DNA of 64,000 nt, taken from contig DAKS01000039.1 in the NCBI GenBank assembly GCA_002499195.1, positions 11,720-75,719 on the forward strand. The letters are read 5' to 3'. Position 1 is the first letter of the stretch, and every line of letters starts with the position of its first letter. The translations under genes were made by a program, and so were the position numbers. Positions 43,044-64,000 of this stretch are shown here, piece after piece. A model generated the notes under the pieces. The model saw only the letters and a list, made by a program, of their open reading frames with translations. It was not told where the DNA came from and ran no database searches. The stretch is from Euryarchaeota archaeon UBA443 (GTDB lineage: Archaea > Thermoplasmatota > Poseidoniia > Poseidoniales > Poseidoniaceae).

Positions 43044-43065
43044 ATGTCAAATCAATTTGCCATGT

Positions 43066-43082
43066 TCTTGATATTAAAGCGC
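43066..43082 (+). promoter_or_regulatory. TATA-like element inside the Lhr/surface-protein junction.
   Basis: ttgatattaaagcg lies 26 nt upstream of the candidate start 43098 and about 90 nt upstream of the signal-peptide Met at 43164. Confidence 0.25.
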
Positions 43083-43097
43083 TCACGTATCGTATAC

Positions 43098-48404: not shown

Positions 48405-49592
48405 TTGGACGATACGGATTCTCTTCGCGGAGGTTGTACAACAGAAGTCTTGTTTAGACTCATTCAACAACTTCCTACAGACGTTAACGTTGGCCAGGCG
48501 AGATTGGTCCGATTATGGCCATTTGCTCAACGACGCACACGCGGCAATGCGGCTGTTGCGGTTGAATTGAAAACTGATGATGAGTCAGCGTTGTTGCAAT
48601 TCCTCGAAGGATATTGGAACGATTTTATCCTCCCGCTAAGAGGTGATGTTCAAGCAAGTCAACACAGTGATCGAGAACAATTTCCTTCGGATCCAGGTAT
48701 GGTTTGGTTTTCTAAAGTTAAGAGTAATGAACTATTCTATAGAAATGGTTTACGGCAAGAAATTGGCGAGAAAGATTTGCCGGAAGCAACAAAATCATGG
48801 GGAGGTCATGGAAAGATTGGTGCGACATTAGCAGTTCATTGGCCTGCAAAAACCTCAACCTTCGAAGCTATTGCTTGGAGGATGCAAGAAAATACTGGAC
48901 CAAGAAAATTGGATGAGAAGGCGATTGCAATAGTCGATCAAATGAAAGAAACATTTCTTTGTCGAGACGGACGCTTAGGAGCATCGATGTTAGCACCTAG
49001 AGGCTCATCACCTGTCTTGTTCGGAGTGCGTACTTGGACCAAGCAATCAGCAGAAGAGGCACTTCAAATCCTCATCGATGCAACAAATACTGAACCTGTT
49101 GCAGGTTCGATAGTGTTTGAAACGAATCATGCCACAAACGATCATTTGGATGAATCATTGGAATTACAGATCGAAGCGATTGAAATTTTCAAAGGAGGAC
49201 ATGCATTGCTACATTCAACGACTGAACGATTTTTGGCGTTCAAAGAATCAGGACAGATCGCTTCAATCTGTCAAGAATTACGAGTAGGAGACGTTGTTGA
49301 ATGTAAAGGATTACGAGCGCCAGATGGATCAATACACATTGAATTTTTACAAATTTCACATCTCGTTTCGAATCGAAAACGACCGTTGTGCCCAACCTGT
49401 AACAAGTCGATGTCATCGATGGGGCGGAATCAGGGATTACGCTGTAAAAAGTGTGGATTCAAGTCCGAGGATGTATGGGATGAATCGCCACGGTCCTTGC
49501 CGATGAACCAATGGTTTCAACCACCACCGCCCTCTCGAAGGCATCTCGCTAAACCACTGGATGAGCAACCAGAAAGACAAAACAATCTTTAG
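48405..49592 (+). CDS. tiaS: tRNA(Ile2) agmatidine synthetase TiaS.
   Basis: The N-terminus ...LGLDDTDSLRGGCTTEV matches TiaS IGIDDTDSxxGMCTT. A C-terminal zinc ribbon is present (CPTCNKSMSSMGRNQGLRCKKCG). The apparent start is TTG at 48405, 17 nt after the upstream stop. Confidence 0.75.
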   Translation: MDDTDSLRGGCTTEVLFRLIQQLPTDVNVGQARLVRLWPFAQRRTRGNAAVAVELKTDDESALLQFLEGYWNDFILPLRGDVQASQHSDREQFPSDPGMVWFSKVKSNELFYRNGLRQEIGEKDLPEATKSWGGHGKIGATLAVHWPAKTSTFEAIAWRMQENTGPRKLDEKAIAIVDQMKETFLCRDGRLGASMLAPRGSSPVLFGVRTWTKQSAEEALQILIDATNTEPVAGSIVFETNHATNDHLDESLELQIEAIEIFKGGHALLHSTTERFLAFKESGQIASICQELRVGDVVECKGLRAPDGSIHIEFLQISHLVSNRKRPLCPTCNKSMSSMGRNQGLRCKKCGFKSEDVWDESPRSLPMNQWFQPPPPSRRHLAKPLDEQPERQNNL

Positions 49593-49868: not shown

Positions 49869-50645
49869 TTCTTCAATTAGCAAATCACTAACATCACCAT
49901 CCTTGTCGAGATGAGTGATGTTGCGTTGGCCGGAATATAATCCCCAAATTTCGAACCCTTGACTTACAAATTCAGTTTTTGAACGAACACGATATTCCTC
50001 ATCCGACCCTGTCACATCAGTTCCAGATTTCGAGATTAGAAGTAGAGTTGTTTCTGAGTTGATACGTTGTGCAAGATCGAAAATAGCCTTCAGATTATCC
50101 TTTTCTATCCTTCCTGTTGGAGAGCACCAATCATCGAGAACGACAAGACCAACCCGGGGTAAACTCTGCTCGGCTTCAACAATAGCATCAACGCATCTAT
50201 CCATTGCACCGATGAGATTGAGGGCATGAAATCGACTAGATTCGACAATGTTCAATGAAGAAAATAGTTGAGAAAAACGTGTCGCATTTGGCATCTCAGG
50301 AGAGGCCCACAATACACGTCCACCCGATTGAATTTGATCCACTGCGCAATGAAGGCCAAAAGTTGTGCCGCCGCAACCACCTTGAACTGAGAGATGGATT
50401 CTTCTCCCAGTCAAATCGTTCGACCAACGTTCCGCCATAAACCATGGGTGGAGTCCTATGATTTGATTCCGTTCATGCAAAATGCTCTTGACCTCTCTCT
50501 CAATCGACAGGTTATGAGCGGAGAAGTGCGAAAAGGTGAGCGAATCCCACGCAGAGAGGCTCCTCCTTACGAAGAAGCCGATAGTTTTGGTCAAGCCGTA
50601 GCTCGAGATGGTTTCTTCAAAACGGCGATTAACGATGCTAACCAA
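49848..50645 (-). CDS. RecA/KaiC-like P-loop fold protein with a degenerate Walker A (no lysine).
   Basis: LSVQGGCGGTTFGLHC occupies the Walker A position without the conserved Lys. Walker B-like VGLVVLDDW is present. Length is 265 aa. Confidence 0.45.
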   Translation of the reverse strand: MVSIVNRRFEETISSYGLTKTIGFFVRRSLSAWDSLTFSHFSAHNLSIEREVKSILHERNQIIGLHPWFMAERWSNDLTGRRIHLSVQGGCGGTTFGLHCAVDQIQSGGRVLWASPEMPNATRFSQLFSSLNIVESSRFHALNLIGAMDRCVDAIVEAEQSLPRVGLVVLDDWCSPTGRIEKDNLKAIFDLAQRINSETTLLLISKSGTDVTGSDEEYRVRSKTEFVSQGFEIWGLYSGQRNITHLDKDGDVSDLLIEESGFFIV

Positions 50646-50773
50646 TACGGTCCAATCGGTATGATGATTCTTCTTTTCATTGTCGCTACCATAACCGGTG
50701 CGGCCATCAAACTGCTTGAATCGCTCTGATGGCTTGAAACAATTGGATTAAAAATCGCTCTCCTGACTGTTTT

Positions 50774-50790
50774 GAAAGCGATATATTCAA
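50774..50790 (+). promoter_or_regulatory. TATA-like element with leaderless-type spacing.
   Basis: gaaagcgatatattc lies about 30 nt upstream of the ATG at 50815. Confidence 0.3.
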
Positions 50791-50814
50791 ACCCGCTTTG
50801 TCGAAGTCTTGAGC

Positions 50815-51279
50815 ATGAGTGAGGGCTCAGTTAACGTTGAGAGTCGCACCTCTTCTCAAGATAAGCGTTGGACCATAATGGCCGCTTTGCTCGGAACAAA
50901 TACAGCAGTAATGTTGTTTCAAGGTATTGAGCAAGAAACAAATCCTACTCCTATTCGGGAAGTTGCACTCACCATTATTGCTGCAACATTGCCGTTCCAG
51001 GCGATTTATTTCCTCATCTACACCTTTCTTCTCGAGAACAATGGCAAACTTAGCCATCACATGGTAAAGAAATTGAAAACTGCATCCAACATCTGTCAAT
51101 TGTTTGCGTATATTTCCTTGGTTGGCGTTGCAATGTTGTGGTACAATCTTTCGATATATGTTGGTGTTGTCTTCTTCATATCCACTGTTTTTGCTATGAT
51201 CTTGGTACGTTATGCCATGATGACGGATGAAGAATCTCGTGATGAAATGAAGGCTAGTGCCAATGAGCAAGGTTCATGA
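50815..51279 (+). CDS. Hypothetical membrane protein (about 4 TM helices).
   Basis: The ORF opens at 50809 (TTG). The ATG at 50815 lies about 30 nt downstream of the TATA-like element gaaagcgatatattc, which would fit a leaderless start. Confidence 0.45.
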   Translation: MSEGSVNVESRTSSQDKRWTIMAALLGTNTAVMLFQGIEQETNPTPIREVALTIIAATLPFQAIYFLIYTFLLENNGKLSHHMVKKLKTASNICQLFAYISLVGVAMLWYNLSIYVGVVFFISTVFAMILVRYAMMTDEESRDEMKASANEQGS

Positions 51280-51301
51280 AGTATCTTCTTGACCAAACAA
51301 T

Positions 51302-52660
51302 ATGGCGTTCTGCCCTCTTGATTACCGATACGGCTGCCAAGATTTCAAACACATTTGGTCCGAATCAGGGCGCCATGAACGTCAATTGGAAGTTGAACGT
51401 GCACTGATTTGGGCACATTGGCAACTAGGTAGAGTGTCGGAAGATGACTATAACGCGGTAGCTGCTATTTCAAATCCAGAATCGGTACGAAAAGAACGTG
51501 TTTCTGAGATTGAAGCCGAAACACGTCATGATATCATGGCCTTAACAAAAGCCATGGCTGAAGCCGCAGGAGATGCTGGATGGTGCATACACCTCGGCGC
51601 CACATCCAATGATATCGTTGATACAGCCGTTGCATTACAACTTCGTGATAGTATCGTTTTCCTCAGAGAACAACTGTGTTTGCTGATCGGAGTTTGTGCT
51701 GATGTTGCAGAACGGGAACGTGATACTGTCATGCTGGGACGTACCCACGGGCAAGCAGCAGTTCCTATCACATTTGGACTCAAAGCAGCAGTATGGCTCG
51801 ATGAAATGCGAAGGCAACTTGTTCGACTCGATGAGGCTACACCAAGAATCGCGGTTGGTAAGTTCCTCGGTGCCGTTGGAACTGGAGCTGCTCAGGGAGA
51901 AAACGCACGTGAACTTCAGAGGCTTATTCTAACTCATCTCGGCCTTGGTGTTCCACTTGCAACCACTCAAGTTGTTGGTCGTGATCGCTACGTTGAATAT
52001 GTCTCTTGGCTAGCGAATGTGGCAACAACTTGCGAAAAGATTCTCCAAGAAATCCGTAATTTACAACGCTCCGAACTTTCGGAAGCGGGTGAAGGATTTG
52101 ATGTTAAGAAACAAGTTGGGTCTTCGACAATGGCTCACAAAAAGAATCCAATAAAATCTGAAAATGCCTCCGGACTTGCACGAATCGTACGTTCTTTTAT
52201 CATTCCAACATATGAAAATGCGCTTCTATGGCATGAAAGAGATCTTGCAAATTCAAGCAGTGAGCGTTTTACACTTTCACATGGAAGCGCATTGTGCGAA
52301 GATGTCATCTCCAAAACTCGACAAGTACTAACCAATATGTGGGTTGATGCGGAGCGATGCATGGAGAATATTCGTGCACAACGTGGTTTGGTTATGGCCG
52401 AGAAGGTTATGATCGACCTTGTTGACCGAGGTATACCTCGAGATGAGGCTCACGAAATTCTTCGTGAAGCATCCTTTACGGCTGTTGCAAATAAAGAGGA
52501 ACTCATCGATGTATGCAGTCGAACACCAGCAATTTCAGCCTCTTTCAGCGCTGAAGAATTGGAAGCGATGTTTGAACCAAGCAATCACATTGGAGTATCT
52601 GGTGAACTCGTTGATGAGGCTGTTGCACTTGCCCGTGCTGCGATTCAAACAACGGATTGA
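51302..52660 (+). CDS. purB: Adenylosuccinate lyase.
   Basis: Fumarate-lyase signature GSSTMAHKKNP and an ASL-type N-terminus (PLDYRYG). Length is 452 aa. Confidence 0.88.
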   Translation: MAFCPLDYRYGCQDFKHIWSESGRHERQLEVERALIWAHWQLGRVSEDDYNAVAAISNPESVRKERVSEIEAETRHDIMALTKAMAEAAGDAGWCIHLGATSNDIVDTAVALQLRDSIVFLREQLCLLIGVCADVAERERDTVMLGRTHGQAAVPITFGLKAAVWLDEMRRQLVRLDEATPRIAVGKFLGAVGTGAAQGENARELQRLILTHLGLGVPLATTQVVGRDRYVEYVSWLANVATTCEKILQEIRNLQRSELSEAGEGFDVKKQVGSSTMAHKKNPIKSENASGLARIVRSFIIPTYENALLWHERDLANSSSERFTLSHGSALCEDVISKTRQVLTNMWVDAERCMENIRAQRGLVMAEKVMIDLVDRGIPRDEAHEILREASFTAVANKEELIDVCSRTPAISASFSAEELEAMFEPSNHIGVSGELVDEAVALARAAIQTTD

Positions 52661-53301
52661 ATCGTGAACACGCCTCTGCTAGCAGTATGATGCTCTTCTC
52701 CAGAAACCTGTAATGATCTTGACCATATTGGGCCACCGAGGACGAAGGTTTCGTACTCACCACCCTCACCATCAACATTGAATCTATGTTGAAGGGATAG
52801 ATTGTGAAGTTCATCCAATGTCGCTTTTGTAAGTACATGGCCAAGCCATGTGTGATCCAGTCCTTCACAGGAGACGGATGTCATCATGATTTCAAAACCT
52901 GCTTCAACCATACCTCGAAGGTGTTCGATTGGTGTTTGATGCCACAATGGTGCGTAGGAGTGAATGTTGAGTCGCTGACACATACATTCCAAACGTTGCT
53001 TCTGAAAATCAGAACGTAATGCACCACTGACTAAAGCATCGATTTCAAGTTGGGACAGGGCCGATTCAAGTGCTTGTATTTCATCCTCAACAGAACCCGA
53101 TGCAGGAACGTTGATCCAAGGTATCTCTGCAAGTTGTGCTTGATGTTTGACCCATTTGGTCGAAGGTACCTGAAACATATGGGAATCACCATCCTGAATC
53201 TCCACCGTGACAATCGCGACAACGTCCCAGCCACGACACATCGCCCACCACCAGGCGGCTGAGGAATCCTTTCCTCCCGAACTGAGGACTGCAATTCGCA
53301 T
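52645..53301 (-). CDS. dph6: Diphthine-ammonia ligase (Dph6 / MJ0570-family PP-loop ATPase).
   Basis: MRIAVLSSGGKDSSAAWWWA carries the SGGKDS PP-loop. The overall alpha-ANH-like architecture is present. Length is 218 aa. Confidence 0.7.
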   Translation of the reverse strand: MRIAVLSSGGKDSSAAWWWAMCRGWDVVAIVTVEIQDGDSHMFQVPSTKWVKHQAQLAEIPWINVPASGSVEDEIQALESALSQLEIDALVSGALRSDFQKQRLECMCQRLNIHSYAPLWHQTPIEHLRGMVEAGFEIMMTSVSCEGLDHTWLGHVLTKATLDELHNLSLQHRFNVDGEGGEYETFVLGGPIWSRSLQVSGEEHHTASRGVFTIQSVV

Positions 53302-53441
53302 AAACCACCCACGAACTTCAACTTCATGAGATTAAGGGAAAACAAGCCAAGTCTTCAAATGGGTCCTTCAATTGGATTGTATAGGGTGGTGAAGCATCAC
53401 CCTCATAAAGCGTCGAGGACGAGAAGGAATTGGTGAGATAA

Positions 53442-54164
53442 ATGCAACCTAGTGGAAGAGGATACGATCATGGAATTACAACTTTTAGCCCAGATGGACG
53501 TTTGTTCCAAGTAGAATACGCTCGCGAATCTGTCAAGCGTGGTACAACCACTGCAGGACTGAAGTTCAAAGAAGGCGTTGTTCTTGTTTGTGACAAGCGT
53601 ATTGCATCCCGCCTCATCATCCCAGAATCCATTGAGAAGATGTTCAAAATCGACGAACACGTAGGTGTTGCAACCTCTGGACTTGTCGCTGATGCACGGC
53701 AACTCGTCGCTCGAGCACGGGTTGAATCTCAAATCAACCGAATCACCTATGCAGATACAGTTCCTGTTGACGTTCTTGTCAAAAAAATCTGTGACTTCAA
53801 ACAATCGTTCACCCAATACGGTGGGTCCCGTCCATTCGGTACCGCTTTGTTGATTGGTGGTGTTGACGATGAAGGAATTCATCTCTACGAAACTGATCCT
53901 TCCGGAGCCTATCAATCATATCATGCCGGTGCAATCGGTAGCAACCGTAACACTGTAATCGAGTATTTCGAGAAGAATTGGAAGAATGGAATGACCCTAA
54001 ATGCGGCAATGAAGATGGGACTTGAAGCCCTTCGTTCTGCAAATGATACTGAATTAAACCGTGATGCTGTTGAAGTTGTCGTCGTTGATGACAAAGGATA
54101 CCGTATCCTCGACCGAGGCGAAGTTAACAAGCAGCTTGATCGTCTCAAGCCTCTTGAAGACTGA
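53442..54164 (+). CDS. psmA: Proteasome alpha subunit.
   Basis: GYDHGITTFSPDGRLFQVEYARESVKRG is the canonical alpha-subunit N-terminus. It is the first gene of the exosome superoperon. Confidence 0.92.
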   Translation: MQPSGRGYDHGITTFSPDGRLFQVEYARESVKRGTTTAGLKFKEGVVLVCDKRIASRLIIPESIEKMFKIDEHVGVATSGLVADARQLVARARVESQINRITYADTVPVDVLVKKICDFKQSFTQYGGSRPFGTALLIGGVDDEGIHLYETDPSGAYQSYHAGAIGSNRNTVIEYFEKNWKNGMTLNAAMKMGLEALRSANDTELNRDAVEVVVVDDKGYRILDRGEVNKQLDRLKPLED

Positions 54165-54202
54165 GCAATCAGTTTATTGTCCCCGTACCTATAGGTGGCC
54201 AC

Positions 54203-54895
54203 ATGGTCAGTCTAGATGATGCCGTACTTGCACGTTTGGAAAAAGGTGGAAAGCGTTATGAGGCGCTTGTTGATCCCGATCTTGTTGAACAGTGGAGAGA
54301 GGATTCCTCTAATATTGAACTTGATGACTTCATGGCAATGGATGAGATTTTTCATGATGCAAGAGCAGGTAATAGACCTACAGAAGATGCATTGATGAAT
54401 ACATTCGAAACCTTGGATGTTGAAAAAATTCTGAATATCATTCTCGAAAAGGGTTCTATTCAATTGACTACTACTCAACGAAAATCTCGTGTTGAAAACA
54501 TTCGACAACAGATTATTCATCATATCCACAGTGAGGCTATAGATCCAAAAACTAAGTCCCCACATCCACGTACAAGAATCGAATTAGCACTGGAGGAATC
54601 GAAATATTCAGTCGATCCATTCAAGCGGCTTGAAGAACAGGTAAATGATGCTATTGCGAAACTAAAACCACTCATACCTCTCAGCTTTGAATCTGTCCGT
54701 TTGGCATTTCGAATACCTGGTAGTGCTTACGGAAGTGTTAGTCAGTTATTGCGCACCTTCCAACAGAAAGAAGGTTGGCTTGAAAACGGTGATTGGGCCT
54801 GTGTTATAGAAATCCCGGCCGGAAGGAAAGGCGACATAATCGGACAAGTTCTCAAGCGAGCAAACAATGCAGAAGTCAAGGAATTGTCCTCTTAA
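54203..54895 (+). CDS. sdo1: SBDS/Sdo1 ribosome-maturation protein homologue.
   Basis: The N-terminus VLARLEKGGKRYEALVDPD matches the SBDS FYSH domain. It sits between psmA and rrp4 as in archaeal superoperons. Confidence 0.8.
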   Translation: MVSLDDAVLARLEKGGKRYEALVDPDLVEQWREDSSNIELDDFMAMDEIFHDARAGNRPTEDALMNTFETLDVEKILNIILEKGSIQLTTTQRKSRVENIRQQIIHHIHSEAIDPKTKSPHPRTRIELALEESKYSVDPFKRLEEQVNDAIAKLKPLIPLSFESVRLAFRIPGSAYGSVSQLLRTFQQKEGWLENGDWACVIEIPAGRKGDIIGQVLKRANNAEVKELSS

Positions 54896-54919
54896 CAAAA
54901 GGGTGCCCTTTATCATGGG

Positions 54920-55636
54920 TTGTCGAGTGGGCGGTTCGGAGAGAAAAGAATGTCCGAAGGTCAAGTTGGCGCCGAGCAGCGCCTCGTGACCCCGGGAATG
55001 GTCATCGGGCCATCATCCGGGAAGCGAGCAGGTTCTGGTACGATTACCGAAAACAATGAATTCATTGCCACCCGAGTGGGATGGCTTAACGAACAGAACA
55101 ATGTCGTTTCTGTTTCACCAATTAACAGTGCGTACATGCCTCGTTCCGGTGATTTGATCATTGGATTCGTTGCCGAAGTTCGAAACAACCTTTGGTTCTT
55201 CGATGTTAACGGTCCGTTCCAAGCACTCCTTCCTATGTCACTAGCACCATGGAAAGTTGAATTCGGTTCGACTCGCCAACATCTTGGCATTGGTGATGCT
55301 GCACTAGCACGTATTCAAGAAGTCGATGAAACACACAACATGGTTCTGACCATGAAAGGTGTTGGGCTACGTAGAATCAACGAAGGTGCTGTTTTATCGA
55401 TACCAGTCAACCTTATCGACACGCTACGAGGCGAAAATAACGCTATGGTTAGTAGAATTCGTGATGCAACTGATTGCAGAATTATTGTTGCTGATAACGG
55501 ACGTGTCTGGGTTCATGGTGACGCAGATAACATGAAGGTTGCACGAGAACTGATTCAAACTCTCAACCAAGAAGGACATAAAAATACATTCGAAAGTGCT
55601 GTAGAAGCACTTGAAAACGAACGAGGTGAACACTGA
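54920..55636 (+). CDS. rrp4: Exosome RNA-binding subunit Rrp4 (S1 plus KH).
   Basis: N-terminal domain, S1 (GDLIIGFVAEVRNNLWFFDV) and KH (IRDATDCRIIVADNGRVWVHG). No zinc ribbon, so Rrp4 rather than Csl4. Confidence 0.82.
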   Translation: MSSGRFGEKRMSEGQVGAEQRLVTPGMVIGPSSGKRAGSGTITENNEFIATRVGWLNEQNNVVSVSPINSAYMPRSGDLIIGFVAEVRNNLWFFDVNGPFQALLPMSLAPWKVEFGSTRQHLGIGDAALARIQEVDETHNMVLTMKGVGLRRINEGAVLSIPVNLIDTLRGENNAMVSRIRDATDCRIIVADNGRVWVHGDADNMKVARELIQTLNQEGHKNTFESAVEALENERGEH

Positions 55637-56364
55637 TGGGTGGATATGGAGACGTAAAATTACTACGAGAAGATGGAAAGCGACTAGATGGTCGAGCAAT
55701 CGATGAGATGCGACCAGTAACGATCGAAGCGGGAGTTCTTCCTGCTGCGCATGGATCAGCCATGGTAACACATGGACTCAACGTGGCTGTTGCGGCAGTC
55801 TACGGTCCTATGGAAGCACATCCTCGGAAGATTCAGCGACAAGATCGAGCAGTCATAGATGTGCGATATAATATGGCACCTTTCTCAACAGGTGACCGAA
55901 TCCGTCCTGGATTCAACCGACGAAGTCGAGAAATCTCCAAGGTTACTGCAGAAGCTCTTGAGTCGGTAGTACTCGTCGAGAGATACCCTCGCTCGAAGAT
56001 TCGAGTTGAAATCGAAATCCTCGCCGCTGAAGCAGGTACACGATGTGCGGGTATCACCGCTGCATCTGTCGCTCTTGCTGATGCTGGAATTCCAATGCGA
56101 GACATGATTGTCGGTGTTGCATCAGGTAAAATCGAAGACACCGTTGTTCTTGACTTGGATAAGGCTGAAGATAACTACGGTCAAGCAGACCTTCCGGTTG
56201 GAATCCTGCCAAATACTGGTGAAATCGCATTCTTGCAAATGGATGGAGATCTTTCCATTGACGAATATAATCTCGCTATGGAATACAATTTCAAAGCAGC
56301 CAAAGAAATCCATGAAGAGATGGTTGACGCTTTGAAGCGTCGATATGAAGGAGGTGAGGCCTGA
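55636..56364 (+). CDS. rrp41: Exosome catalytic subunit Rrp41 (RNase PH domain).
   Basis: RLDGRAIDEMRPVTIEAGVLPAAHGSAMV is the RNase PH fold. TGATG overlap with rrp4. Confidence 0.9.
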   Translation: MGGYGDVKLLREDGKRLDGRAIDEMRPVTIEAGVLPAAHGSAMVTHGLNVAVAAVYGPMEAHPRKIQRQDRAVIDVRYNMAPFSTGDRIRPGFNRRSREISKVTAEALESVVLVERYPRSKIRVEIEILAAEAGTRCAGITAASVALADAGIPMRDMIVGVASGKIEDTVVLDLDKAEDNYGQADLPVGILPNTGEIAFLQMDGDLSIDEYNLAMEYNFKAAKEIHEEMVDALKRRYEGGEA

Positions 56365-57149
56365 TGGTCGAACTAGTTCCTTCCCTATTGCGACAAGAAC
56401 TCAATCGTTTAGCTGAAGATGGTCAACGAATTGATGGTCGTGGACAATTCGATGGACGCGATGTTCATCTTGAAGTTGATTGTCTCTACAACGCTGAAGG
56501 ATCTGCAAAGGTCGTTTGGGGCGATACCATCATCTATGCTGGAGTTAAGTTTGAAATTCGAACACCATGGCCTGACCGACCTGCACAAGGATCGCTCATG
56601 TGTGGTGCTGAACTTCGACCAGTTGCACACCGTAAATACGAGCCAGGTCCACCATCACCACAATCGATTGAACTCGGCCGTGTTGTAGATCGTGGAATCC
56701 GTGAATCAGGTTGCATTGACATGGAAGAATTGTGTATTGTTCCTGGCGAGAAAGTCTGGGGTGTTATGATAGATATCCACGTCCTTTCTGATGGAGGCAA
56801 CATATTCGATGCTGCAGGTCTTGCCGCTATCGCTGCTCTGCGAACTGCGGTCGTTCCAGCAGAACGATTCGATGTTGGCGAAGATTACACTTTGAAAGTC
56901 AATGGAACGCCAATTATGGCTTCATTCAAGCGAGCCGGTGGACGCTTCGTATACGACCCGAGCGAGGAAGAAGAACTCGGCGGTGACGAGCGAATTCACA
57001 TCACCCTTGGTGATGAAGGACACCTCCACTCATTACAGAAGGGGCTAAAAGGAGTCTTCACTCCGGACGAATTTGCCGAGATTCTAGCGGTCGCCGAACA
57101 GAAGTGCAGTGAACTGAGAGAAATGGTAGCAGAAAAGGAGGGGAACTGA
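56364..57149 (+). CDS. rrp42: Exosome subunit Rrp42 (inactive RNase PH domain).
   Basis: A second RNase PH-like protein immediately after rrp41, with TGATG overlap. Confidence 0.85.
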   Translation: MVELVPSLLRQELNRLAEDGQRIDGRGQFDGRDVHLEVDCLYNAEGSAKVVWGDTIIYAGVKFEIRTPWPDRPAQGSLMCGAELRPVAHRKYEPGPPSPQSIELGRVVDRGIRESGCIDMEELCIVPGEKVWGVMIDIHVLSDGGNIFDAAGLAAIAALRTAVVPAERFDVGEDYTLKVNGTPIMASFKRAGGRFVYDPSEEEELGGDERIHITLGDEGHLHSLQKGLKGVFTPDEFAEILAVAEQKCSELREMVAEKEGN

Positions 57150-57506
57150 TTGGCAAAGAGAACCCAGAAAGCAAAGGCAACAGCCCGATTTGGTGCACGA
57201 TATGGTGTTAGCGTTCGACGTAATGCTGGAAGTGCTTTGGCAAAGAAGAATGCCAAGTACACCTGTCCAGTTTGTCACTACCGCAAGGTAACCCGCCAAT
57301 CAGTCGGCATCTGGTCCTGCAGTAAGTGTGGCCACACCTTCGCTGGCGGTGCATGGGAACCATTCACTCGAGCAAGCGATGCAAACTCCCGTATCCTTCG
57401 ACGATCTGTTGAAGGAGCAACAACTGCGGATATGGCATTCATTGCACAACAAGCTGCTCTAGACTTTGAGCGAAAGGCTGCTGAAGACGCATCTGAAGAA
57501 GAGTGA
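57150..57506 (+). CDS. rpl37ae: Ribosomal protein L37ae (eL43) with an acidic C-terminal extension.
   Basis: AKRTQKAKATARFGARYG and the zinc ribbon CPVCHYRKV...CSKCGHTF are present. TTG start abutting the rrp42 stop. Confidence 0.85.
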   Translation: MAKRTQKAKATARFGARYGVSVRRNAGSALAKKNAKYTCPVCHYRKVTRQSVGIWSCSKCGHTFAGGAWEPFTRASDANSRILRRSVEGATTADMAFIAQQAALDFERKAAEDASEEE

Positions 57507-57778
57507 GCATTATGGCGGAGACGCCCTTCTCACTTGTTTGTACCATCGCACGAGCGGATGCTGCAGATATTAGAGCGATGCGTGATTCCCTCATCTCAGA
57601 AGCAGAAAGTCATTCTATTGATGATAATACATTTTCATTTCGCTTGGATGAAAATAATGCAAAAGATTTGCGGGCTATGTGGAATACACGAATTCGTGGA
57701 TTGATTGCAGCGGACGAAATTCTACAGGCGATTGAATCCGCAGGTTCATCAACCAAAGACAACTCGATGGATGCATGA
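57503..57778 (+). CDS. Small alpha/beta protein, possibly KEOPS subunit Pcc1-like.
   Basis: 91 aa. A beta-alpha-beta-alpha pattern ends in LRAMWNTRIRGLIAADEILQAIE, resembling the Pcc1 C-terminal helix (LRAxLNSYLRLI...E). No Cys, so not RpoP. GTGA overlap with L37ae. Confidence 0.35.
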   Translation: MSIMAETPFSLVCTIARADAADIRAMRDSLISEAESHSIDDNTFSFRLDENNAKDLRAMWNTRIRGLIAADEILQAIESAGSSTKDNSMDA

Positions 57779-58089
57779 GCACCGTTGAACAACTCCAAGT
57801 CGTTGTCTCAGAAGTCCAAAATGCACGACACAAAGTTGCTACTGTTCGAGCACAGTTGCAAGAACTGGAAACCACAATAACTGCAGTCGAAAAACATCCA
57901 GAAGGTATGGCTTTGCACCGACAACTCGGTGGAGTATTGGTTGAAGTCGATGATAAAGAAGAGTTGATTGAGGAACTCAAAACAACCCATTCAACACTTT
58001 CTGAACATGCGGAGCGACTTAGCGAACATGAAGCGAAACTCGTAGCAGCATACGATGAACTCAAGAAATCGCTTGAGGGAGAAGTTTGA
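57775..58089 (+). CDS. pfdB: Prefoldin beta subunit.
   Basis: A 104-aa coiled-coil/beta-hairpin/coiled-coil architecture with a central hydrophobic hairpin (MALHRQLGGVLVEV). ATGA overlap upstream. Confidence 0.75.
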   Translation: MSTVEQLQVVVSEVQNARHKVATVRAQLQELETTITAVEKHPEGMALHRQLGGVLVEVDDKEELIEELKTTHSTLSEHAERLSEHEAKLVAAYDELKKSLEGEV

Positions 58090-59078
58090 ACGATTACCAA
58101 CAAGATATTGCCGCGATGAAGCAATGGCTCGATTCAGCCATTGAACGTGGTGCAGTACCCGTCATCACTGGTCAAAATGGTGACATGGATACGATTGGAT
58201 CAGCCATTGCTTTAGCATCTATTCATCCTTCACTACTCGCTTGTGGACTTCACATAGGAAGGATTGCAAAACGAATGGTTGATCAATTGAGGGCACCATT
58301 TCGAAAGATTGCTGCTAAAGGCACAGTTTTTCCAGATCCACTCGGTGGTATCATAATCGTTGATGCTGCAGCACCAGAGCAAGTAGGTATTGACTTACCA
58401 GACGTGCCAAAGTTGATTATTGACCATCATGCAACCAATGGTTGGGAACTGAGTGAAGATGATTGCATGTTACAATGGGATGTTCGTGCAACGACAGAAA
58501 TTATTGCAACATACATGTTCGAGCATGAGAAAGAATCTTTGAGCGATTCGGTAAGAAGGATGCTTCTTGCTGGATTGATTACAGATACTGGACGTTACAA
58601 GCATGCAGATGCTGGTTCCTTTGCAATTACAACGCAACTCCTTGAAGGGGCGGATATCGACTATGCTGAATTCTGTGAGCACATTGAACGAGAGGAAACA
58701 TCACCATCTGAACGAGGTAGCCTCTTGCGAGGACTCAGCAGAACGAAACATCATGATGCTGGTGATTGGAGTCTCGTAACAACATATGCAGGGACACTTG
58801 AGGGTCGACTCGCCTCAATGTTGCTTGCAACGGGTTGTGATGTATCGCTAGTATCGCGTCATCGTGAAGGTGAAACACGATTGACAGCACGGGCAACACG
58901 AAAATCAACACTACGGGGAGTTCATCTTGGTTCTGTCATGAAAGCGATTGCTGAACAACATGGTGGGGATGGAGGCGGACATGATGGTGCTGCTGGATGG
59001 ACTGGAAACATCGATCGAATTCGCGCCGAATCAGCATTCATTGCACAACTTACATTGCAAGAAAAGGTGAAACTATGA
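58086..59078 (+). CDS. DHH-family phosphoesterase (NrnA/nanoRNase-like; DHH plus DHHA1).
   Basis: IIDHHATNG DHH motif and GGGHDGAAG DHHA1 motif. TTG start overlapping the pfdB stop. Confidence 0.8.
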   Translation: MNDYQQDIAAMKQWLDSAIERGAVPVITGQNGDMDTIGSAIALASIHPSLLACGLHIGRIAKRMVDQLRAPFRKIAAKGTVFPDPLGGIIIVDAAAPEQVGIDLPDVPKLIIDHHATNGWELSEDDCMLQWDVRATTEIIATYMFEHEKESLSDSVRRMLLAGLITDTGRYKHADAGSFAITTQLLEGADIDYAEFCEHIEREETSPSERGSLLRGLSRTKHHDAGDWSLVTTYAGTLEGRLASMLLATGCDVSLVSRHREGETRLTARATRKSTLRGVHLGSVMKAIAEQHGGDGGGHDGAAGWTGNIDRIRAESAFIAQLTLQEKVKL

Positions 59079-60124
59079 GACCTAAGGCACCAGGATTGTA
59101 CATCTCCAAGTGGAGAGAAGAAGGACCTGTATCTCTCGAAGATGCTCTAAACTGGAGAGAGGATTTCGGTTGGAATGATTGGATGGCTATCATCGAAGCG
59201 GCCCTATACCTAGATGCTGCTGAACTAGTGGAACTTATTATTCCTGAATTAACACCTGCACAGAGAGCGACATTTGACTTGGTTCGAAGACGAATGCTCG
59301 GTGATAATCGTCTAGAAGAAGCGATTGACAAGGCATTAGAGGTTTGTAGATCCCCAGAAACTCGTGATTTAGCACTTGAGGGAAGACTTCGAATGGAACG
59401 AGGACTTCAACGATTTGAGAAAGGGGATTCAGAAGGAGCAGAGGAGGACCTAACATGGGCAGAAACACGCTTGAAGTCTGTTGCTAAGGCCAGTCGTGAC
59501 CATGACCTTTCCTTATTGAATAAAGCGGCATATCATATGGCATCTGGAGAGGATTTGATGGCACTTCAAGTGTATGGTGATATTTCTCGTCAAGAGAATC
59601 ACGCCCACGAAACCATTGCGATTTCACGTATTGGAGCCTCGCGCATACATGCTCGCTACGAACGTATGTTCGATGCTGCTCGAAATGCTTGGAACGGTCA
59701 TGCCCATGCAATTCTAGCCAATCAAGTTACAATGGCGATCGAAGCGGGAAGCCTCTTCCTCGACCTGTCCATTGGAGAGCAAAATCTTGAAGCAGTACGA
59801 TTCCAAGAACAAGTCGATGGTTCAAAACCTCGCGATGTTGGTGAAAAGGCTCCTGAATTGAAGGTTCATCCAGATGATATTTCGGGAGTTTTCGATTGGT
59901 GCATGAAACATCTTAACAAAGATCCAATGGGTCATGACCGACCTGATTTGCGAGCTATGATCATGATGGCACATCGTCTTGACCGTCTAAATGAATTTGA
60001 ATGGCTCATCGAGGAACCGAATCTAGTCGATGATTCGATGCTCGTTGCAGTCGTTCTTGGTTGCTCCCTTGAGGATGAGCAAAAAGTTGCATGGAATGAG
60101 CGTATGAAATCACTCATGCCCTAG
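59075..60124 (+). CDS. Hypothetical all-helical (TPR/HEAT-like) protein, last member of the superoperon.
   Basis: ATG at 59075 overlaps the DHH stop (ATGA); the ORF track opens earlier at 58997. 349 aa, no recognisable catalytic motif. Confidence 0.5.
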   Translation: MRPKAPGLYISKWREEGPVSLEDALNWREDFGWNDWMAIIEAALYLDAAELVELIIPELTPAQRATFDLVRRRMLGDNRLEEAIDKALEVCRSPETRDLALEGRLRMERGLQRFEKGDSEGAEEDLTWAETRLKSVAKASRDHDLSLLNKAAYHMASGEDLMALQVYGDISRQENHAHETIAISRIGASRIHARYERMFDAARNAWNGHAHAILANQVTMAIEAGSLFLDLSIGEQNLEAVRFQEQVDGSKPRDVGEKAPELKVHPDDISGVFDWCMKHLNKDPMGHDRPDLRAMIMMAHRLDRLNEFEWLIEEPNLVDDSMLVAVVLGCSLEDEQKVAWNERMKSLMP

Positions 60125-60577
60125 TTCTATAGAATCTAGCCACTTGCTCAAGTCAACTACTTCCTGTATATCCCAATGGGTAAATTCAGGTAATTCTGTA
60201 AACCATTTAACCGTTGAAACGTGTTGATCTATTACCTCCCATGTCGGTTCTGAGAATGGTAAGTTTTCATCATCGACCACAACTAATCCAACCCAACCAT
60301 TTGGATAATACGTCTTGTTCCAAGCAAGGATTTCACCACAACCGCCCACTTCCTCACCAAGTTCTCGTTCAAGGGCTTGTTGTGGTGTTTCACCCTCTTC
60401 GATATGACCACCTGGAAATTCCCAGCCTCGCTGGGGATGCTGTACCATTAGGATTGAACCTGAATTGAGCACTGAGCGTGGATTACCTCGGGGAACAACA
60501 TAGGCCAATACGAACTTTGGATTCACTCGATCACCTACATCTGCGAACGGCATTGCTCGAGATAGGTTTCCGCCCAC
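60110..60577 (-). CDS. Nudix hydrolase.
   Basis: Nudix box GGHIEEGETPQQALERELGEEVG. Length is 155 aa. Confidence 0.8.
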   Translation of the reverse strand: MGGNLSRAMPFADVGDRVNPKFVLAYVVPRGNPRSVLNSGSILMVQHPQRGWEFPGGHIEEGETPQQALERELGEEVGGCGEILAWNKTYYPNGWVGLVVVDDENLPFSEPTWEVIDQHVSTVKWFTELPEFTHWDIQEVVDLSKWLDSIELGHE

Positions 60578-61569
60578 CCTTCGCCAGAAGCAACAAGTCG
60601 ACGTGACAGGAAGAAAGCCTCTGAGATATTGCCGGACTCGATAAGTTCAATCAACCTCTTCTCGTCAATATTAATTTCTTGAGTTTCTTCTTCGACTTGT
60701 TGAACAGTTTCAGGCTCAGTTATTTCCTGACGTACACGCTTATTGAGTTGTTCCATTTGTTCAAGGAACGCTGTTCTATGTTCCAGTTTTGGACCACTCC
60801 AAGGTGTTTGTGCTTCACCATCCATTCGCTCAGTTAATCGATTCAAGAATTCGTCCCGTACCAGTAAATGCGGCATTAGGGTTTGGACATGGTCATAACA
60901 AGACCATGCTGAATCGATTTCTTGTCGTCTCTCGTGCAATCGTCCAAGTTGCATCCAAAGTTCATGATTGATAGGCCGATGTGCTAGAAGATGACGACTC
61001 AATTCTATGAATAGGTCTTCAAATCCTTGTAATCGTAAAAGTTCGATTCGACGACCGTAGACGATATTGGCACGTTGATCTCTAAAATCTAGATCTCGAC
61101 ACCGATCAGCGAATTCAGCGATTTCAAGCAACATTGCATCGCTTTGTTCATCACCCCCTCCACGTTGAACAAGTGCTTCCCACCAAGCATCTGGAGTGAG
61201 GGGGTCACGAGCAAATGCAGCTTCAAGCAGTTCCAATCCAAATTCAAGATAATCCAAGTTTTTCAATTTCTCGAATTGTTCAGTATCTCGTCCAAGTACT
61301 GTAAAGACATCTTCCAAAACAATTCCAAGTCCAACGTTGTCTTTGAGTCCAACTTTGATGTCAGCCAGACAGCGCCAGTTACGCTCGTCTGTAAAATCAT
61401 GTAATAGCGCCTGACGAGCGTTTTGTTCCGCCCATTGCATGTTCGATTCCTTTCTCTCAGGATCTGCTTTAGCGAGTCGGACAAATTTCTGCGCTTGTGT
61501 CCGATATCGATTACCTAGATTGCGTCGAGGGTGCTGCAAATCATCATGCGCAGATTGACTCATGACCAT
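60535..61569 (-). CDS. Hypothetical helical protein (TPR-like) between UbiD and Nudix.
   Basis: 344 aa, predicted all-alpha. Overlaps the Nudix start by 43 nt and starts 3 nt after the UbiD stop. Confidence 0.45.
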   Translation of the reverse strand: MVMSQSAHDDLQHPRRNLGNRYRTQAQKFVRLAKADPERKESNMQWAEQNARQALLHDFTDERNWRCLADIKVGLKDNVGLGIVLEDVFTVLGRDTEQFEKLKNLDYLEFGLELLEAAFARDPLTPDAWWEALVQRGGGDEQSDAMLLEIAEFADRCRDLDFRDQRANIVYGRRIELLRLQGFEDLFIELSRHLLAHRPINHELWMQLGRLHERRQEIDSAWSCYDHVQTLMPHLLVRDEFLNRLTERMDGEAQTPWSGPKLEHRTAFLEQMEQLNKRVRQEITEPETVQQVEEETQEINIDEKRLIELIESGNISEAFFLSRRLVASGEGWAETYLEQCRSQM

Positions 61570-61571
61570 CC

Positions 61572-62843
61572 CTACTGGGCGCTCATGTAACCTTCTGGGT
61601 TATCTGAATGATGGATGGTTGCATCAAATCCAACTTTAGAAGTCAAACCATCTTGATAGCGAGATGGATCGAGGCTCGATCCTTTTTGATTCGAAAAGAT
61701 ATGCGTGTCTCGATCTGGCTGCCAACGGGTGACCATTGCCCATTCCACACGAACAGGATTGCTGATGTCGATATCTTCATCGACGATTGTAACCATCTTC
61801 ATCGATCGATGACCGGCTAATGCGGCTTCAATGGCTTTTCTTCCATCATCTTCGGATGTTTTTCGAATTTTGACAACGGCAGAAAGCCACCCACATCCCC
61901 CTTCAGTCATATGAACGTCAATACAATCAACAACTTTCGCAACGGCTTCTTTAATCGTAGGAGAACGAGGTAGACCCATGAGTGTCTTGTGCTCTGCTTC
62001 TCCTGGAATGAGGGCATGGAAAATCGGATCGTTTCGATGCAATACACCATCCACTTCGATTACAGGTTCTTGCCGGACATCATCGATTGTTCCGGTTATG
62101 TCAACATATGGACCTTCATCATCATCATCGAGCGTGATTCGGCCCCACATCGCATACTCGGCATCAGCAGGAACCTGAATTCCATTAGGCAATTCAACCA
62201 ATTGAAGCGGTTTGTTGTACAGTTTTTCGTGCAATGCAGCTGCTATGGTCAATTCATCTACCGGTTCATCAAACGACATTGCACCTGCTAGTAGAACAAC
62301 TGGGTCTGGAGCATTGACTATCGCTATGTCAACTTCTTCTCCCTGCTGCCTAGCTTGGTCTACCATTGTTCTAAGATGACGAGGGACAAGTCGAGCGACC
62401 AAATGATTCTCATCTCGTAAAAATTGGCGATGAAAACTCATGTTACGTTGGCCATTGACTTCGGCAATAATGACGCTTGCCGACATGTATCGGCCACGGT
62501 CTTGTGGCCAATGATGCGGAATTGGGAGCGAATGCAAATCGACTTGATCTTGCATATTATCAAACACTGCTGCTTCGGCTGGAGAAACTACTTCAGGTGT
62601 TGAAGGGTTTTTCATAGCCCATGCGAGTGTATCGATGTATACCTCAGGTTGAATCCCAATCGCCTCACATAGGCGGTCACGGGTAAGCATGTTGACCGAA
62701 ACTCGTTGCCCTGAAGTCTCCTTGATGTTTTCAAACAAGAGATTTGGATGCGATTGATTGGAACTTAATTCCCAGATACCATGGATTAGACTAATCTCTT
62801 GGTCGACGCGTTTAGCGTGCGAAAGATGATCACGGAATGCCAA
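61572..62843 (-). CDS. UbiD-family (prenylated-FMN-dependent) decarboxylase, candidate MqnL.
   Basis: UbiD-like motifs HHWPQDRGRYM and EGPYVDITG. Length is 423 aa. Confidence 0.75.
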   Translation of the reverse strand: MAFRDHLSHAKRVDQEISLIHGIWELSSNQSHPNLLFENIKETSGQRVSVNMLTRDRLCEAIGIQPEVYIDTLAWAMKNPSTPEVVSPAEAAVFDNMQDQVDLHSLPIPHHWPQDRGRYMSASVIIAEVNGQRNMSFHRQFLRDENHLVARLVPRHLRTMVDQARQQGEEVDIAIVNAPDPVVLLAGAMSFDEPVDELTIAAALHEKLYNKPLQLVELPNGIQVPADAEYAMWGRITLDDDDEGPYVDITGTIDDVRQEPVIEVDGVLHRNDPIFHALIPGEAEHKTLMGLPRSPTIKEAVAKVVDCIDVHMTEGGCGWLSAVVKIRKTSEDDGRKAIEAALAGHRSMKMVTIVDEDIDISNPVRVEWAMVTRWQPDRDTHIFSNQKGSSLDPSRYQDGLTSKVGFDATIHHSDNPEGYMSAQ

Positions 62844-62855
62844 CGTATCACGCCC

Positions 62856-63086
62856 TCAGAATTTCGTCTGAGTATCTTCGAGATAGCGTGGGCGTTCCTC
62901 TTCTTCGCTCTCGGCGCTTGCCGACATCATGTTCATTCCCGAAAATAAACCGATGAGACCAACAGCATGAGATGTTAGGATATCAACCTCGGAATCTACA
63001 ATTACAATCCAGTGATTAATGATGACCAAAAGGCCAAGAGCCATGGTCAAGAGCGCTACAATAGGTCGCATTCCTCTCGGAATCAT
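62856..63086 (-). CDS. Small two-TM protein, first gene of the UbiD operon (hypothetical).
   Basis: 76 aa with two hydrophobic helices and an acidic tail. It ends 12 nt before the UbiD start. Confidence 0.3.
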   Translation of the reverse strand: MIPRGMRPIVALLTMALGLLVIINHWIVIVDSEVDILTSHAVGLIGLFSGMNMMSASAESEEEERPRYLEDTQTKF

Positions 63087-63163
63087 GATACAACTAACAA
63101 CATCATGTTTATGATATTATTCTTCAATGCAGACGGTGGATTCATCACCTCGATGAAACGGCG

Positions 63164-63180
63164 ACTTGATATATGAAAGC
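63164..63180 (+). promoter_or_regulatory. TATA-like element upstream of rps12-rps7.
   Basis: ttgatatatgaaagc lies about 35-40 nt upstream of the rps12 ATG in a divergent intergenic region. Confidence 0.3.
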
Positions 63181-63207
63181 AAAGTCGGCAAAACGCTCGA
63201 ATGAGGT

Positions 63208-63642
63208 TTGAACATGGGTAGGGGACTCTTTGCAGGTGCAAAAATGGCCAAGGACCGCCAAAAATTTCGTTGGTCTGACCGACGTTACAAGAAGCGTATG
63301 CTCAAATCTCGTGCAAAGCACGATCCTCTAGCAGGATCCACTCAAGCCAAGGGTATCGTCATTGAAAAAGTCGGTATCGAAGCTAAGCAACCTAACTCAG
63401 GGATCCGTAAGGCAGTCAAAATTTCTCTCATCAAGAATGCGAACAAACTGACGGCATTCGCCCCTGGCGACGGTGCTATCAACTTTATCGACGAACACGA
63501 TGAAGTCATGGTCGAAGGTATTGGTGGACGTATGGGTCGTTCCTACGGAGATATTCCAGGAGTTAGATACAAGGTCATTCAAGTCAACGGTGTTTCACTC
63601 GATGAAATGGTTCGAGGACGCAAGGAGAAGCCGGTACGCTGA
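63208..63642 (+). CDS. rps12: Ribosomal protein S12 (uS12).
   Basis: [27 protein letters not shown]...[18 protein letters not shown] is highly conserved uS12. Confidence 0.92.
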
Positions 63643-63652
63643 GGTGTTCATT

Positions 63653-64000
63653 ATGACAGAAGAAGAAGTCGACGAACGCCCAATCGCTGGAATTGGTACT
63701 CTAGTATTTGGAAAGTGGGATGCTACAGAAGTTGTCTGTAACGATCCTGGTCTTGCTCCATACGTTAACCTCACGACTGTTGGTGTACCACACACCGGCG
63801 GCCGTCATGCTAACATGTGGTTTGGAAAATCTAAACTCAGCGTAGTAGAGCGCTACATCAACAAACTAATGCGAACTGGTGCATATACTGGTAAGAAGCA
63901 ATCTGCAATGAAGGCATTTGAGAGTTCTCTCGATGTTATTGCTGAGCGTCGTAACATGAATCCTCTACAAGTTTTCGTTGATGCTATATGCAATGCAGCA
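63653..64000 (+). CDS. rps7: Ribosomal protein S7 (uS7); the 3' end runs past the window edge.
   Basis: The ATG at 63653 gives MTEEEVDERPIAGIGTLVFGKWDATEVVCNDPGLAPYVNL...VPHTGGRHA...VERYINKLMRTG, typical archaeal uS7. It runs to the window end. Confidence 0.88.
   Translation, partial: MTEEEVDERPIAGIGTLVFGKWDATEVVCNDPGLAPYVNLTTVGVPHTGGRHANMWFGKSKLSVVERYINKLMRTGAYTGKKQSAMKAFESSLDVIAERRNMNPLQVFVDAICNAA

Follow-up and report, generated by a model that had tools for sequence, protein, structure and literature searches.

The window analysed here, a stretch of 64,000 nucleotides (nt) from the assembly of Euryarchaeota archaeon UBA443 (GCA_002499195.1, contig DAKS01000039.1, positions 11,720 to 75,719), carries ten consecutive open reading frames (ORFs) on the plus strand at window positions 53442-60124. 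Taken as a whole, this run is probably the classical archaeal exosome/proteasome superoperon in its Marine Group II form, with two lineage-specific genes appended. The appended genes encode a stand-alone DHH/DHHA1 phosphoesterase and an all-helical protein of 349 amino acids (aa) that resembles a tetratricopeptide repeat (TPR) solenoid. A small protein of 91 aa encoded within the run, hereafter p91, is very probably a divergent form of Pcc1, a subunit of the KEOPS complex. The names of the organisms from which homologues derive place the source in the Poseidoniaceae of Marine Group II.

Eight of the ten genes are identified by Pfam; the exceptions, p91 and the 349-aa protein, gave no significant match in Pfam or NCBIfam. 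According to the Pfam assignments and coordinates, rrp4, rrp41 and rrp42 are adjacent on one strand, with psmA and the SBDS gene upstream and with rpl37ae, pcc1 (assigned to p91 by fold, motif and position) and pfdB downstream. The superoperon core retained here would comprise psmA, SBDS, rrp4, rrp41, rrp42, rpl37ae, pcc1 and pfdB.

The archaeal exosome/proteasome superoperon was reportedly described by Koonin, Wolf and Aravind in 2001. It has since been restated as a conserved neighbourhood that mixes genes for RNA decay, protein decay, the ribosome, chaperones and tRNA modification (PMC2948915, PMC10450193). The run in the window has the same core gene order, single strand and tight junctions, but differs in the absence of IMP4/Brix and rpoP and in the DHH/DHHA1 and TPR genes that come after pfdB. 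No ORF for either missing gene lies between L37ae (ending at 57506) and p91 (starting at 57503 or 57512), and the same holds in relatives; both are frequent, though not universal, members of the superoperon.

The junctions from rrp4/rrp41 through DHH/349-aa read TGATG, TGATG, TGA-TTG, GTGA, ATGA, TTGA and ATGA. A preliminary description of the locus had spoken of ten overlap-coupled genes in which every junction after sdo1 was an overlap. The run itself, the gene lengths, the start codons, the junction strings and most of the overlaps stand as described, but the overlapping or abutting chain holds eight genes only, from rrp4 to the 349-aa gene. The gap between psmA and SBDS is 38 nt, that between SBDS and rrp4 is 24 nt (TTG start) or 54 nt (ATG start), and between rrp42 and L37ae there is an abutment (gap 0) and no overlap. 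The GTG start of p91 likewise belongs to the ORF as listed but is uncertain, most database homologues beginning at ATG 57512 (88 aa); the L37ae/p91 junction differs among relatives. The start of the 349-aa protein at ATG 59075 is backed by its homologues, nearly all of which are 349-361 aa long. Shine-Dalgarno-like motifs of the GGAGGTGA type lie upstream of most internal starts. Because overlaps or abutment join the eight genes, most of them with such motifs, the sequence suggests that rrp4 onward would most likely form one transcript with coupled translation. The ten genes are listed in Table 1.

Table 1. Genes of the plus-strand run, with window coordinates and the basis of each assignment
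Gene or product	Coordinates	Strand	Basis
psmA, proteasome alpha subunit, 240 aa	53442..54164	+	PF00227 (E 2e-57); PF10584
SBDS/Sdo1 homologue, 230 aa	54203..54895	+	Pfam SBDS_N, domain II, SBDS_C
rrp4, exosome cap subunit	54920..55636 (TTG, 238 aa) or from ATG 54950 (228 aa)	+	RRP4_S1, ECR1_N, KH_1
rrp41, RNase PH-type exosome ring subunit, 242 aa	55636..56364	+	RNase_PH, RNase_PH_C
rrp42, exosome ring subunit, 261 aa	56364..57149	+	RNase_PH, RNase_PH_C
L37ae (eL43) ribosomal protein, 118 aa, TTG start	57150..57506	+	PF01780, NF003058 over residues 1-88
p91, divergent Pcc1-like small protein	57503..57778 (GTG 57503, 91 aa, or ATG 57512, 88 aa)	+	AF2 topology, Foldseek, box-2 motif, slot
pfdB, prefoldin beta subunit, 104 aa	57775..58089	+	PF01920 (E 4e-13); TIGR02338; ATGA overlap
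Stand-alone DHH/DHHA1 phosphoesterase, 330 aa, TTG start	58086..59078	+	PF01368, PF02272
TPR-like all-helical protein, 349 aa	59075..60124	+	AF2, Foldseek, TPR_12 matches in relatives

A scan of species-representative genomes returned 220 with a gene related to that of the 349-aa protein, and loci were taken from the best 80 of these 220. Thirteen window proteins were compared by tblastn with 84 loci, the order being read as far as each contig reaches. The order psmA-SBDS-rrp4-rrp41-rrp42-L37ae-p91-pfdB-DHH-349-aa was kept in 84 of 84, where this and the following counts refer to phylogenetically related loci and not to independent events. The minus-strand genes that come after the operon, encoding a Nudix protein, a second TPR-like protein (344 aa) and a UbiD-like protein, were also kept in all 84 within contig reach. 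Gene order is maintained even around relatives of the 349-aa protein with only 22-29% identity, which directly follow pfdB-DHH. In one frameshift-ridden, low-coverage contig (locus L090) the synteny is unchanged.

The spacing of the genes is conserved together with their order. The rrp4/rrp41 and rrp41/rrp42 junctions have a spacing of -1 in 68 of 71 and 73 of 74 loci, respectively, and rrp42/L37ae has a spacing of 0 with a TTG start in 74 of 79. A spacing of -4 is found for p91/pfdB in 57 of 81 loci, for pfdB/DHH in 58 of 82 and for DHH/349-aa in 65 of 86. The overlapped DHH start is ATG in 26, TTG in 26 and GTG in 6 of 82 loci, and the TTG (-4) start in the window is supported because the start at this position is ATG in 26 loci. 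Chance does not account for these tight, conserved junctions.

In one distant relative (locus L087; GCA_035092485.1, 7629-8784) there is no DHH gene, and pfdB is followed directly by the TPR gene (289 aa), the two overlapping by 35 nt; in no lineage examined has the DHH or the TPR gene been relocated. The fastest-evolving gene of the operon is p91, at roughly 43% identity where rrp41 is at 93%. The DHH and TPR genes have diverged about as fast as pfdB and rrp4, and faster than rrp41 of the catalytic exosome core. The preliminary description had proposed that the last three genes be checked for conservation, a recent insertion of the 349-aa gene being the alternative; their conservation at this position across Poseidoniaceae and deeper relatives shows that they were not inserted recently. 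The extension by the DHH and TPR genes is genuine, tightly coupled and, within the Poseidoniales, ancient. The appended genes were seen only in Poseidoniales-type loci, which are the loci examined, and no paper describing the extension was found.

A model of p91 calculated with AlphaFold 2 (AF2) from 23 homologues has a β-α-β-β-α arrangement with strands at residues 9-16, 36-40 and 43-50 and helices at residues 23-30 and 53-82, which is the topology of Pcc1. When this model was used to search the PDB with Foldseek, the nine best matches were all Pcc1 or its paralogue Pcc2 (5jmv, 7a67, 3eno, 4wx8 and 7a66), with probabilities of 0.93-1.0, template modelling (TM) scores of 0.58-0.72 and 12-13% identity to Pcc1 in the structural alignments. 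Known Pcc1 proteins (PF09341; PDB codes: 3ENC, 3ENO, 5JMV and 4WX8) resemble p91 in length (about 75-90 aa), in the order β1-α1-β2-β3-α2, in an LR..(N)(S/T) box-2 motif within the C-terminal helix and in a genomic slot before pfdB. The window protein differs from them in being too divergent for a Pfam call and in having, by the profile alignment, about 8 residues fewer between α1 and α2.

Three Pcc1 reference sequences, validated against PDB chains 3enc, 4wx8 and 6gwj, were aligned with the p91 family using hhalign. The alignment is co-linear over 68 columns (E 0.005) and places the family motif DLRAMWN(T/S) on ALRGTVNS of Pyrococcus furiosus Pcc1, with LRAMWNT falling on LRGTVNS. Of 12 diverse orthologues, 11 have N-T or N-S as the box-2 pair and one (L088) has H-S. 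Daugeron et al. found N72 and S/T73 (P. furiosus numbering) to be specific to Pcc1, with acidic residues (D/E-D/E) at this point in Pcc2 (PMC9889334), and the N-S/T of the p91 family falls exactly on these two discriminating positions. Two divergent p91 orthologues, identified from the syntenic slot, align with positions 34-72 of the 75 in the PF09341 profile and reach 18.7 and 15.3 bits, the Pfam gathering threshold being 20.9 bits. The slot between rpl37ae and pfdB is that of pcc1 in the published euryarchaeal arrangement rpl37Ae-(IMP4)-rpoP-pcc1-pfdB (PMC10450193). The C-terminal helix AKDLRAMWNTRIRGLIA is almost invariant among orthologues from loci L001-L089.

Several observations weigh against this assignment. 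The confidence of the p91 model is moderate (predicted local distance difference test, pLDDT, 76), and the other four models reach only 52-60. The Foldseek E-values are weak (0.04-0.2), and hhalign gives the alignment with Pcc1 a probability of just 7%. Neither the window protein nor any of 22 close homologues is matched by the Pfam Pcc1 model, and a hidden Markov model (HMM) built from the three Pcc1 sequences misses p91 among all window ORFs. Among the window ORFs, to which this search was confined, no second Pcc1-like candidate appeared, and phmmer and profile searches of the PDB with p91 gave no Pcc1 match at threshold level. These shortfalls, the fast evolution of the gene and the appearance of Pcc2, in 7a66 and in the Pcc1-Pcc2 complex 7a67, near the top of the fold matches would fit a protein that is not Pcc1, namely a lineage-specific small protein that shares a common two-layer α/β fold, or Pcc2 itself. 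We consider this improbable: Pcc1 and Pcc2 alone account for the nine best fold matches, the family carries N-T or N-S (H-S in L088) in place of the D/E-D/E of Pcc2, the two sub-threshold orthologues match the C-terminal half of PF09341, and the gene occupies exactly the slot of pcc1 in other Euryarchaeota (PMC10450193). Weak matches of p91 to L20 and Mediator-21 were rejected as noise from helix composition.

Since topology, Foldseek matches, the N-S/T motif with the orthologue profile scores, and the rpl37ae-pfdB slot converge, we take p91 to be, in all likelihood, a divergent Pcc1, as the preliminary description had suspected from its C-terminal helix. The same description had set p91 apart from RpoP for want of cysteine; the protein does have one cysteine (C13) but no zinc ribbon. 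In KEOPS, Pcc1 is the subunit that contacts Kae1, mediates dimerisation and is needed for t6A. The window protein would represent a fast-evolving divergent orthologue with a putative KEOPS function, and its nearly invariant C-terminal helix may form the surface for Kae1 binding and dimerisation; no Kae1 gene is present in the window. The gene is sometimes overlooked by gene callers, as in locus L001, where pfdB is called as 139 aa instead. The link between Pcc1 and the exosome genes, initially put forward as tying KEOPS to this unit, is correct but already known: the association has been in print since at least 2010, with citation of the 2001 superoperon paper (PMC2948915), and was likewise published in PMC10450193.

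The AF2 model of the 349-aa protein has a pLDDT of 90 and contains 19 helices, arranged as tandem helix-turn-helix repeats in a solenoid. Its best Foldseek matches are RapH, RapI, kinesin light chain (KLC), LGN/Pins and designed consensus TPR proteins (E approximately 1e-3, probability 1.0); Ski3 is also among the matches, as one generic TPR protein of many. The Pfam TPR_12 model matches 12 of 25 family members (best E 4.8e-05), the window protein itself giving no match. The protein had been described as lacking an assignable family, a view that goes too far in the light of these matches: on the evidence of the model it is a divergent TPR-repeat solenoid. With the TPR_12-type solenoids (Rap phosphatases, KLC and LGN/Pins) it shares an all-helical right-handed repeat fold, and it differs from them in having a signature of its own, no membership at the sequence level and TM-scores of 0.3-0.5. 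The signature is rich in Arg, Trp and His (LE(G/A)RxRME, DLxWAxxRLK, HxLSxLNxAAxH, SR, RHxW and RPDL), which suggests a putative groove for a specific ligand. By analogy with other TPR_12-type proteins, it may act as a protein-binding scaffold.

When 1.84 billion representative proteins were searched exhaustively with a profile of the 349-aa family, only 100 clusters were recovered, and every named member comes from a Poseidoniales, Thermoplasmatota or 'Euryarchaeota' metagenome-assembled genome. No paralogy was detectable between the 349-aa protein and the neighbouring 344-aa TPR_14-like protein. A possible metal site formed by H176, H178, H209 and H211 was dropped, as these histidines are not conserved in distant relatives, and a marginal profile match (P0308) was discarded as an RNA methyltransferase fragment on a 1.2-kb contig.

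The DHH protein has the build of NrnA, as the preliminary description had recognized, with DHH and DHHA1 domains, a length of 330 aa compared with 310-340 aa, and the DxD, D, DHH, D and GGGH motifs. Little or no variation in the motifs NGDxD, VD, DHH, D(T/S)G and GGGHxGAAGW was seen among 13 orthologues with identities as low as 37%, and the protein should therefore be a catalytically intact, active enzyme. The best PDB matches of its profile are stand-alone two-domain enzymes, namely NrnA, Rv2837c, 4ls9 and TmPDE (about 1e-12 and 50 bits), followed by family II pyrophosphatase and cyclic-dinucleotide phosphodiesterases. The shared build extends to the enzymes of this type as a group (Bacillus subtilis and Mycobacterium smegmatis NrnA, M. 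tuberculosis Rv2837c, Thermotoga maritima TmPDE and P. yayanosii pApase), which have about 330 aa, two domains and the same motifs; the window protein stands apart from them in its scores of about 50 bits. It also carries Gly/Gln where distant relatives have His before motif I.

Against a closer identification stands the finding that the DHH protein falls far under every NCBIfam equivalog cut-off. On the NrnA equivalog NF053633 it scores 19.4 bits, where the cut-off is 350, and the best E-value among the 13 orthologues is 8.6e-07; because this cut-off is missed, we call the protein NrnA-like in build and not NrnA. The archaeal RecJ, GAN and RecJ2 proteins share with it an alignable SAR..GGGH..AAG region of DHHA1, but are 430-480 aa long with extra domains and match over its last 50-145 residues or so only. 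On NF053576 and NF053575 (RecJ/GAN), whose cut-offs are 360 and 850 bits, the window protein scores 43 and 26 bits; the match to RecJ_archaeal extends over residues 161-306, that to GAN over the DHHA1 end only.

The GGGH motif in the DHH superfamily favours a nucleotide or nucleic-acid substrate over pyrophosphate. From its motifs and build, the enzyme would most likely hydrolyse small nucleotides, such as 3'-phosphoadenosine 5'-phosphate (pAp), dinucleotides or RNA of 2-5 nt. Archaeal enzymes of the same build vary in specificity: A. pernix APE_0124 cuts nanoRNA, whereas the NrnA-like pApase of P. yayanosii cuts pAp only (PMC8268124). As an archaeal NrnA-like enzyme can be strictly pAp-specific, nanoRNase activity of the DHH protein is not to be assumed (PMC8268124).

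For the joint role of the two appended genes, one proposal, which goes back to the preliminary description, is that the DHH protein serves as a nanoRNase, degrading the short oligonucleotides that remain after phosphorolysis by the exosome, while the TPR protein is a new exosome or proteasome adaptor that, for example, tethers the DHH protein or substrates to the cap. The tight, conserved pfdB/DHH and DHH/TPR junctions are consistent with this, as is the fact that even deeply diverged relatives keep the pair at the 3′ end of the exosome operon. The GGGH motif and NrnA-like best matches fit a nucleic-acid substrate, and TPR solenoids such as Ski3 work with the eukaryotic exosome, the match to Ski3 itself being generic only. 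The proposal nevertheless seems unlikely to us. The superoperon mixes unrelated functions, so that neighbourhood is weak functional evidence for the DHH and TPR genes; in the lineage of locus L087 the TPR gene is present with no DHH gene beside it; PyapApase, an archaeal enzyme built in the same way, leaves nanoRNA uncut (PMC8268124); and literature searches found no report placing a DHH enzyme with the archaeal exosome. Its full form, a three-part RNA-decay machine in which the DHH enzyme makes mononucleotides from exosome end-products and a TPR adaptor links the enzyme or its substrates to the cap, is in our view quite improbable.

A second possibility, doubtful though to be taken seriously, is that both genes have housekeeping functions with no exosome role and, in the ancestor of the Poseidoniales, came to lie permanently at the end of an operon with strong expression. 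The DHH protein would then act on pAp as a phosphatase, or on dinucleotides or cyclic dinucleotides as a phosphodiesterase, and the TPR protein would be a co-chaperone or assembly scaffold, working for instance with prefoldin or the proteasome. The profile of the DHH protein is approximately equidistant from NrnA, TmPDE, cyclic-dinucleotide phosphodiesterases and family II pyrophosphatase, and the known pAp specificity of an archaeal NrnA-like pApase (PMC8268124) points in the same direction. TPR_12-type domains are generic peptide-binding modules, the TPR gene of L087 persists by itself, and both genes evolve at rates near those of pfdB and rrp4, unlike the slower rrp41. Set against this, the 4-nt overlaps are kept in most lineages and neither gene has moved in any lineage examined, which speaks for selection for co-expression within the operon. 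For the superoperon with its two appended genes, which we continue to regard as the probable reading of the run, a functional tie of the DHH or TPR gene to the exosome is conjecture.

Within the run, L37ae has a C-terminal extension of about 30 aa (window 57414-57506) that ends in the acidic tail ...AAEDASEEE, the family models covering residues 1-88. As the L37ae proteins of relatives are 119-155 aa long, the extension is a lineage trait. TPR clamps bind ligands of the acidic C-terminal tail type. Also at this locus, an antisense ORF of 170 aa (53403-53915, minus strand) lies wholly within psmA and is most likely a non-coding shadow ORF.

Downstream of the operon, genes for a Nudix hydrolase (60110-60577), the 344-aa TPR_14-like protein (60535-61569) and a UbiD-like protein (61572-62843) form a convergent three-gene unit on the minus strand. 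The TPR_14-like and Nudix ORFs overlap by 43 nt, with UbiD 2 nt upstream, and at the Nudix stop there is a 15-nt overlap with the 3′ end of the 349-aa gene; the unit adjoins the operon in all Poseidoniaceae loci. Upstream lie genes for TiaS (tRNA-Ile2 agmatidine synthetase; 48405-49592, plus strand) and a diphthamide-synthase-family protein (52645-53301, minus strand), and the upstream block of TiaS, adenylosuccinate lyase and diphthamide synthase is syntenic in relatives too. Further away on the plus strand, 37752-43043 encodes an Lhr-type helicase of 1763 aa with DEAD, Helicase_C, WH_Lhr and DEAD_assoc matches in the first 820 residues or so, the C-terminal 940 or so residues having no Pfam match. 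Directly after its stop begins a gene (43044-46784, plus strand) for a protein of 1246 aa with C-type lectin, pre-peptidase C-terminal (PPC) and EF-hand matches, which is probably secreted or located at the surface. Rfam gave no matches in window positions 50000-64000.

Both the superoperon and the association of Pcc1 with it are textbook matter in comparative genomics, and the value of the present analysis is incremental. In the surface ocean, few uncultured archaea are as abundant as those of Marine Group II, whose RNA-decay and KEOPS machinery is known from annotation alone. The recognition that a 'hypothetical' gene of 74-91 aa most likely encodes Pcc1 fills an apparent KEOPS gap in automated annotations. 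In the Poseidoniales, the exosome operon ends in two strictly syntenic extra genes, predicted to be translationally coupled, which are concrete and cheap candidates for biochemistry. Were a DHH-TPR finishing module on the exosome to prove true, it would constitute a three-part RNA-decay machine undescribed in any archaeon.

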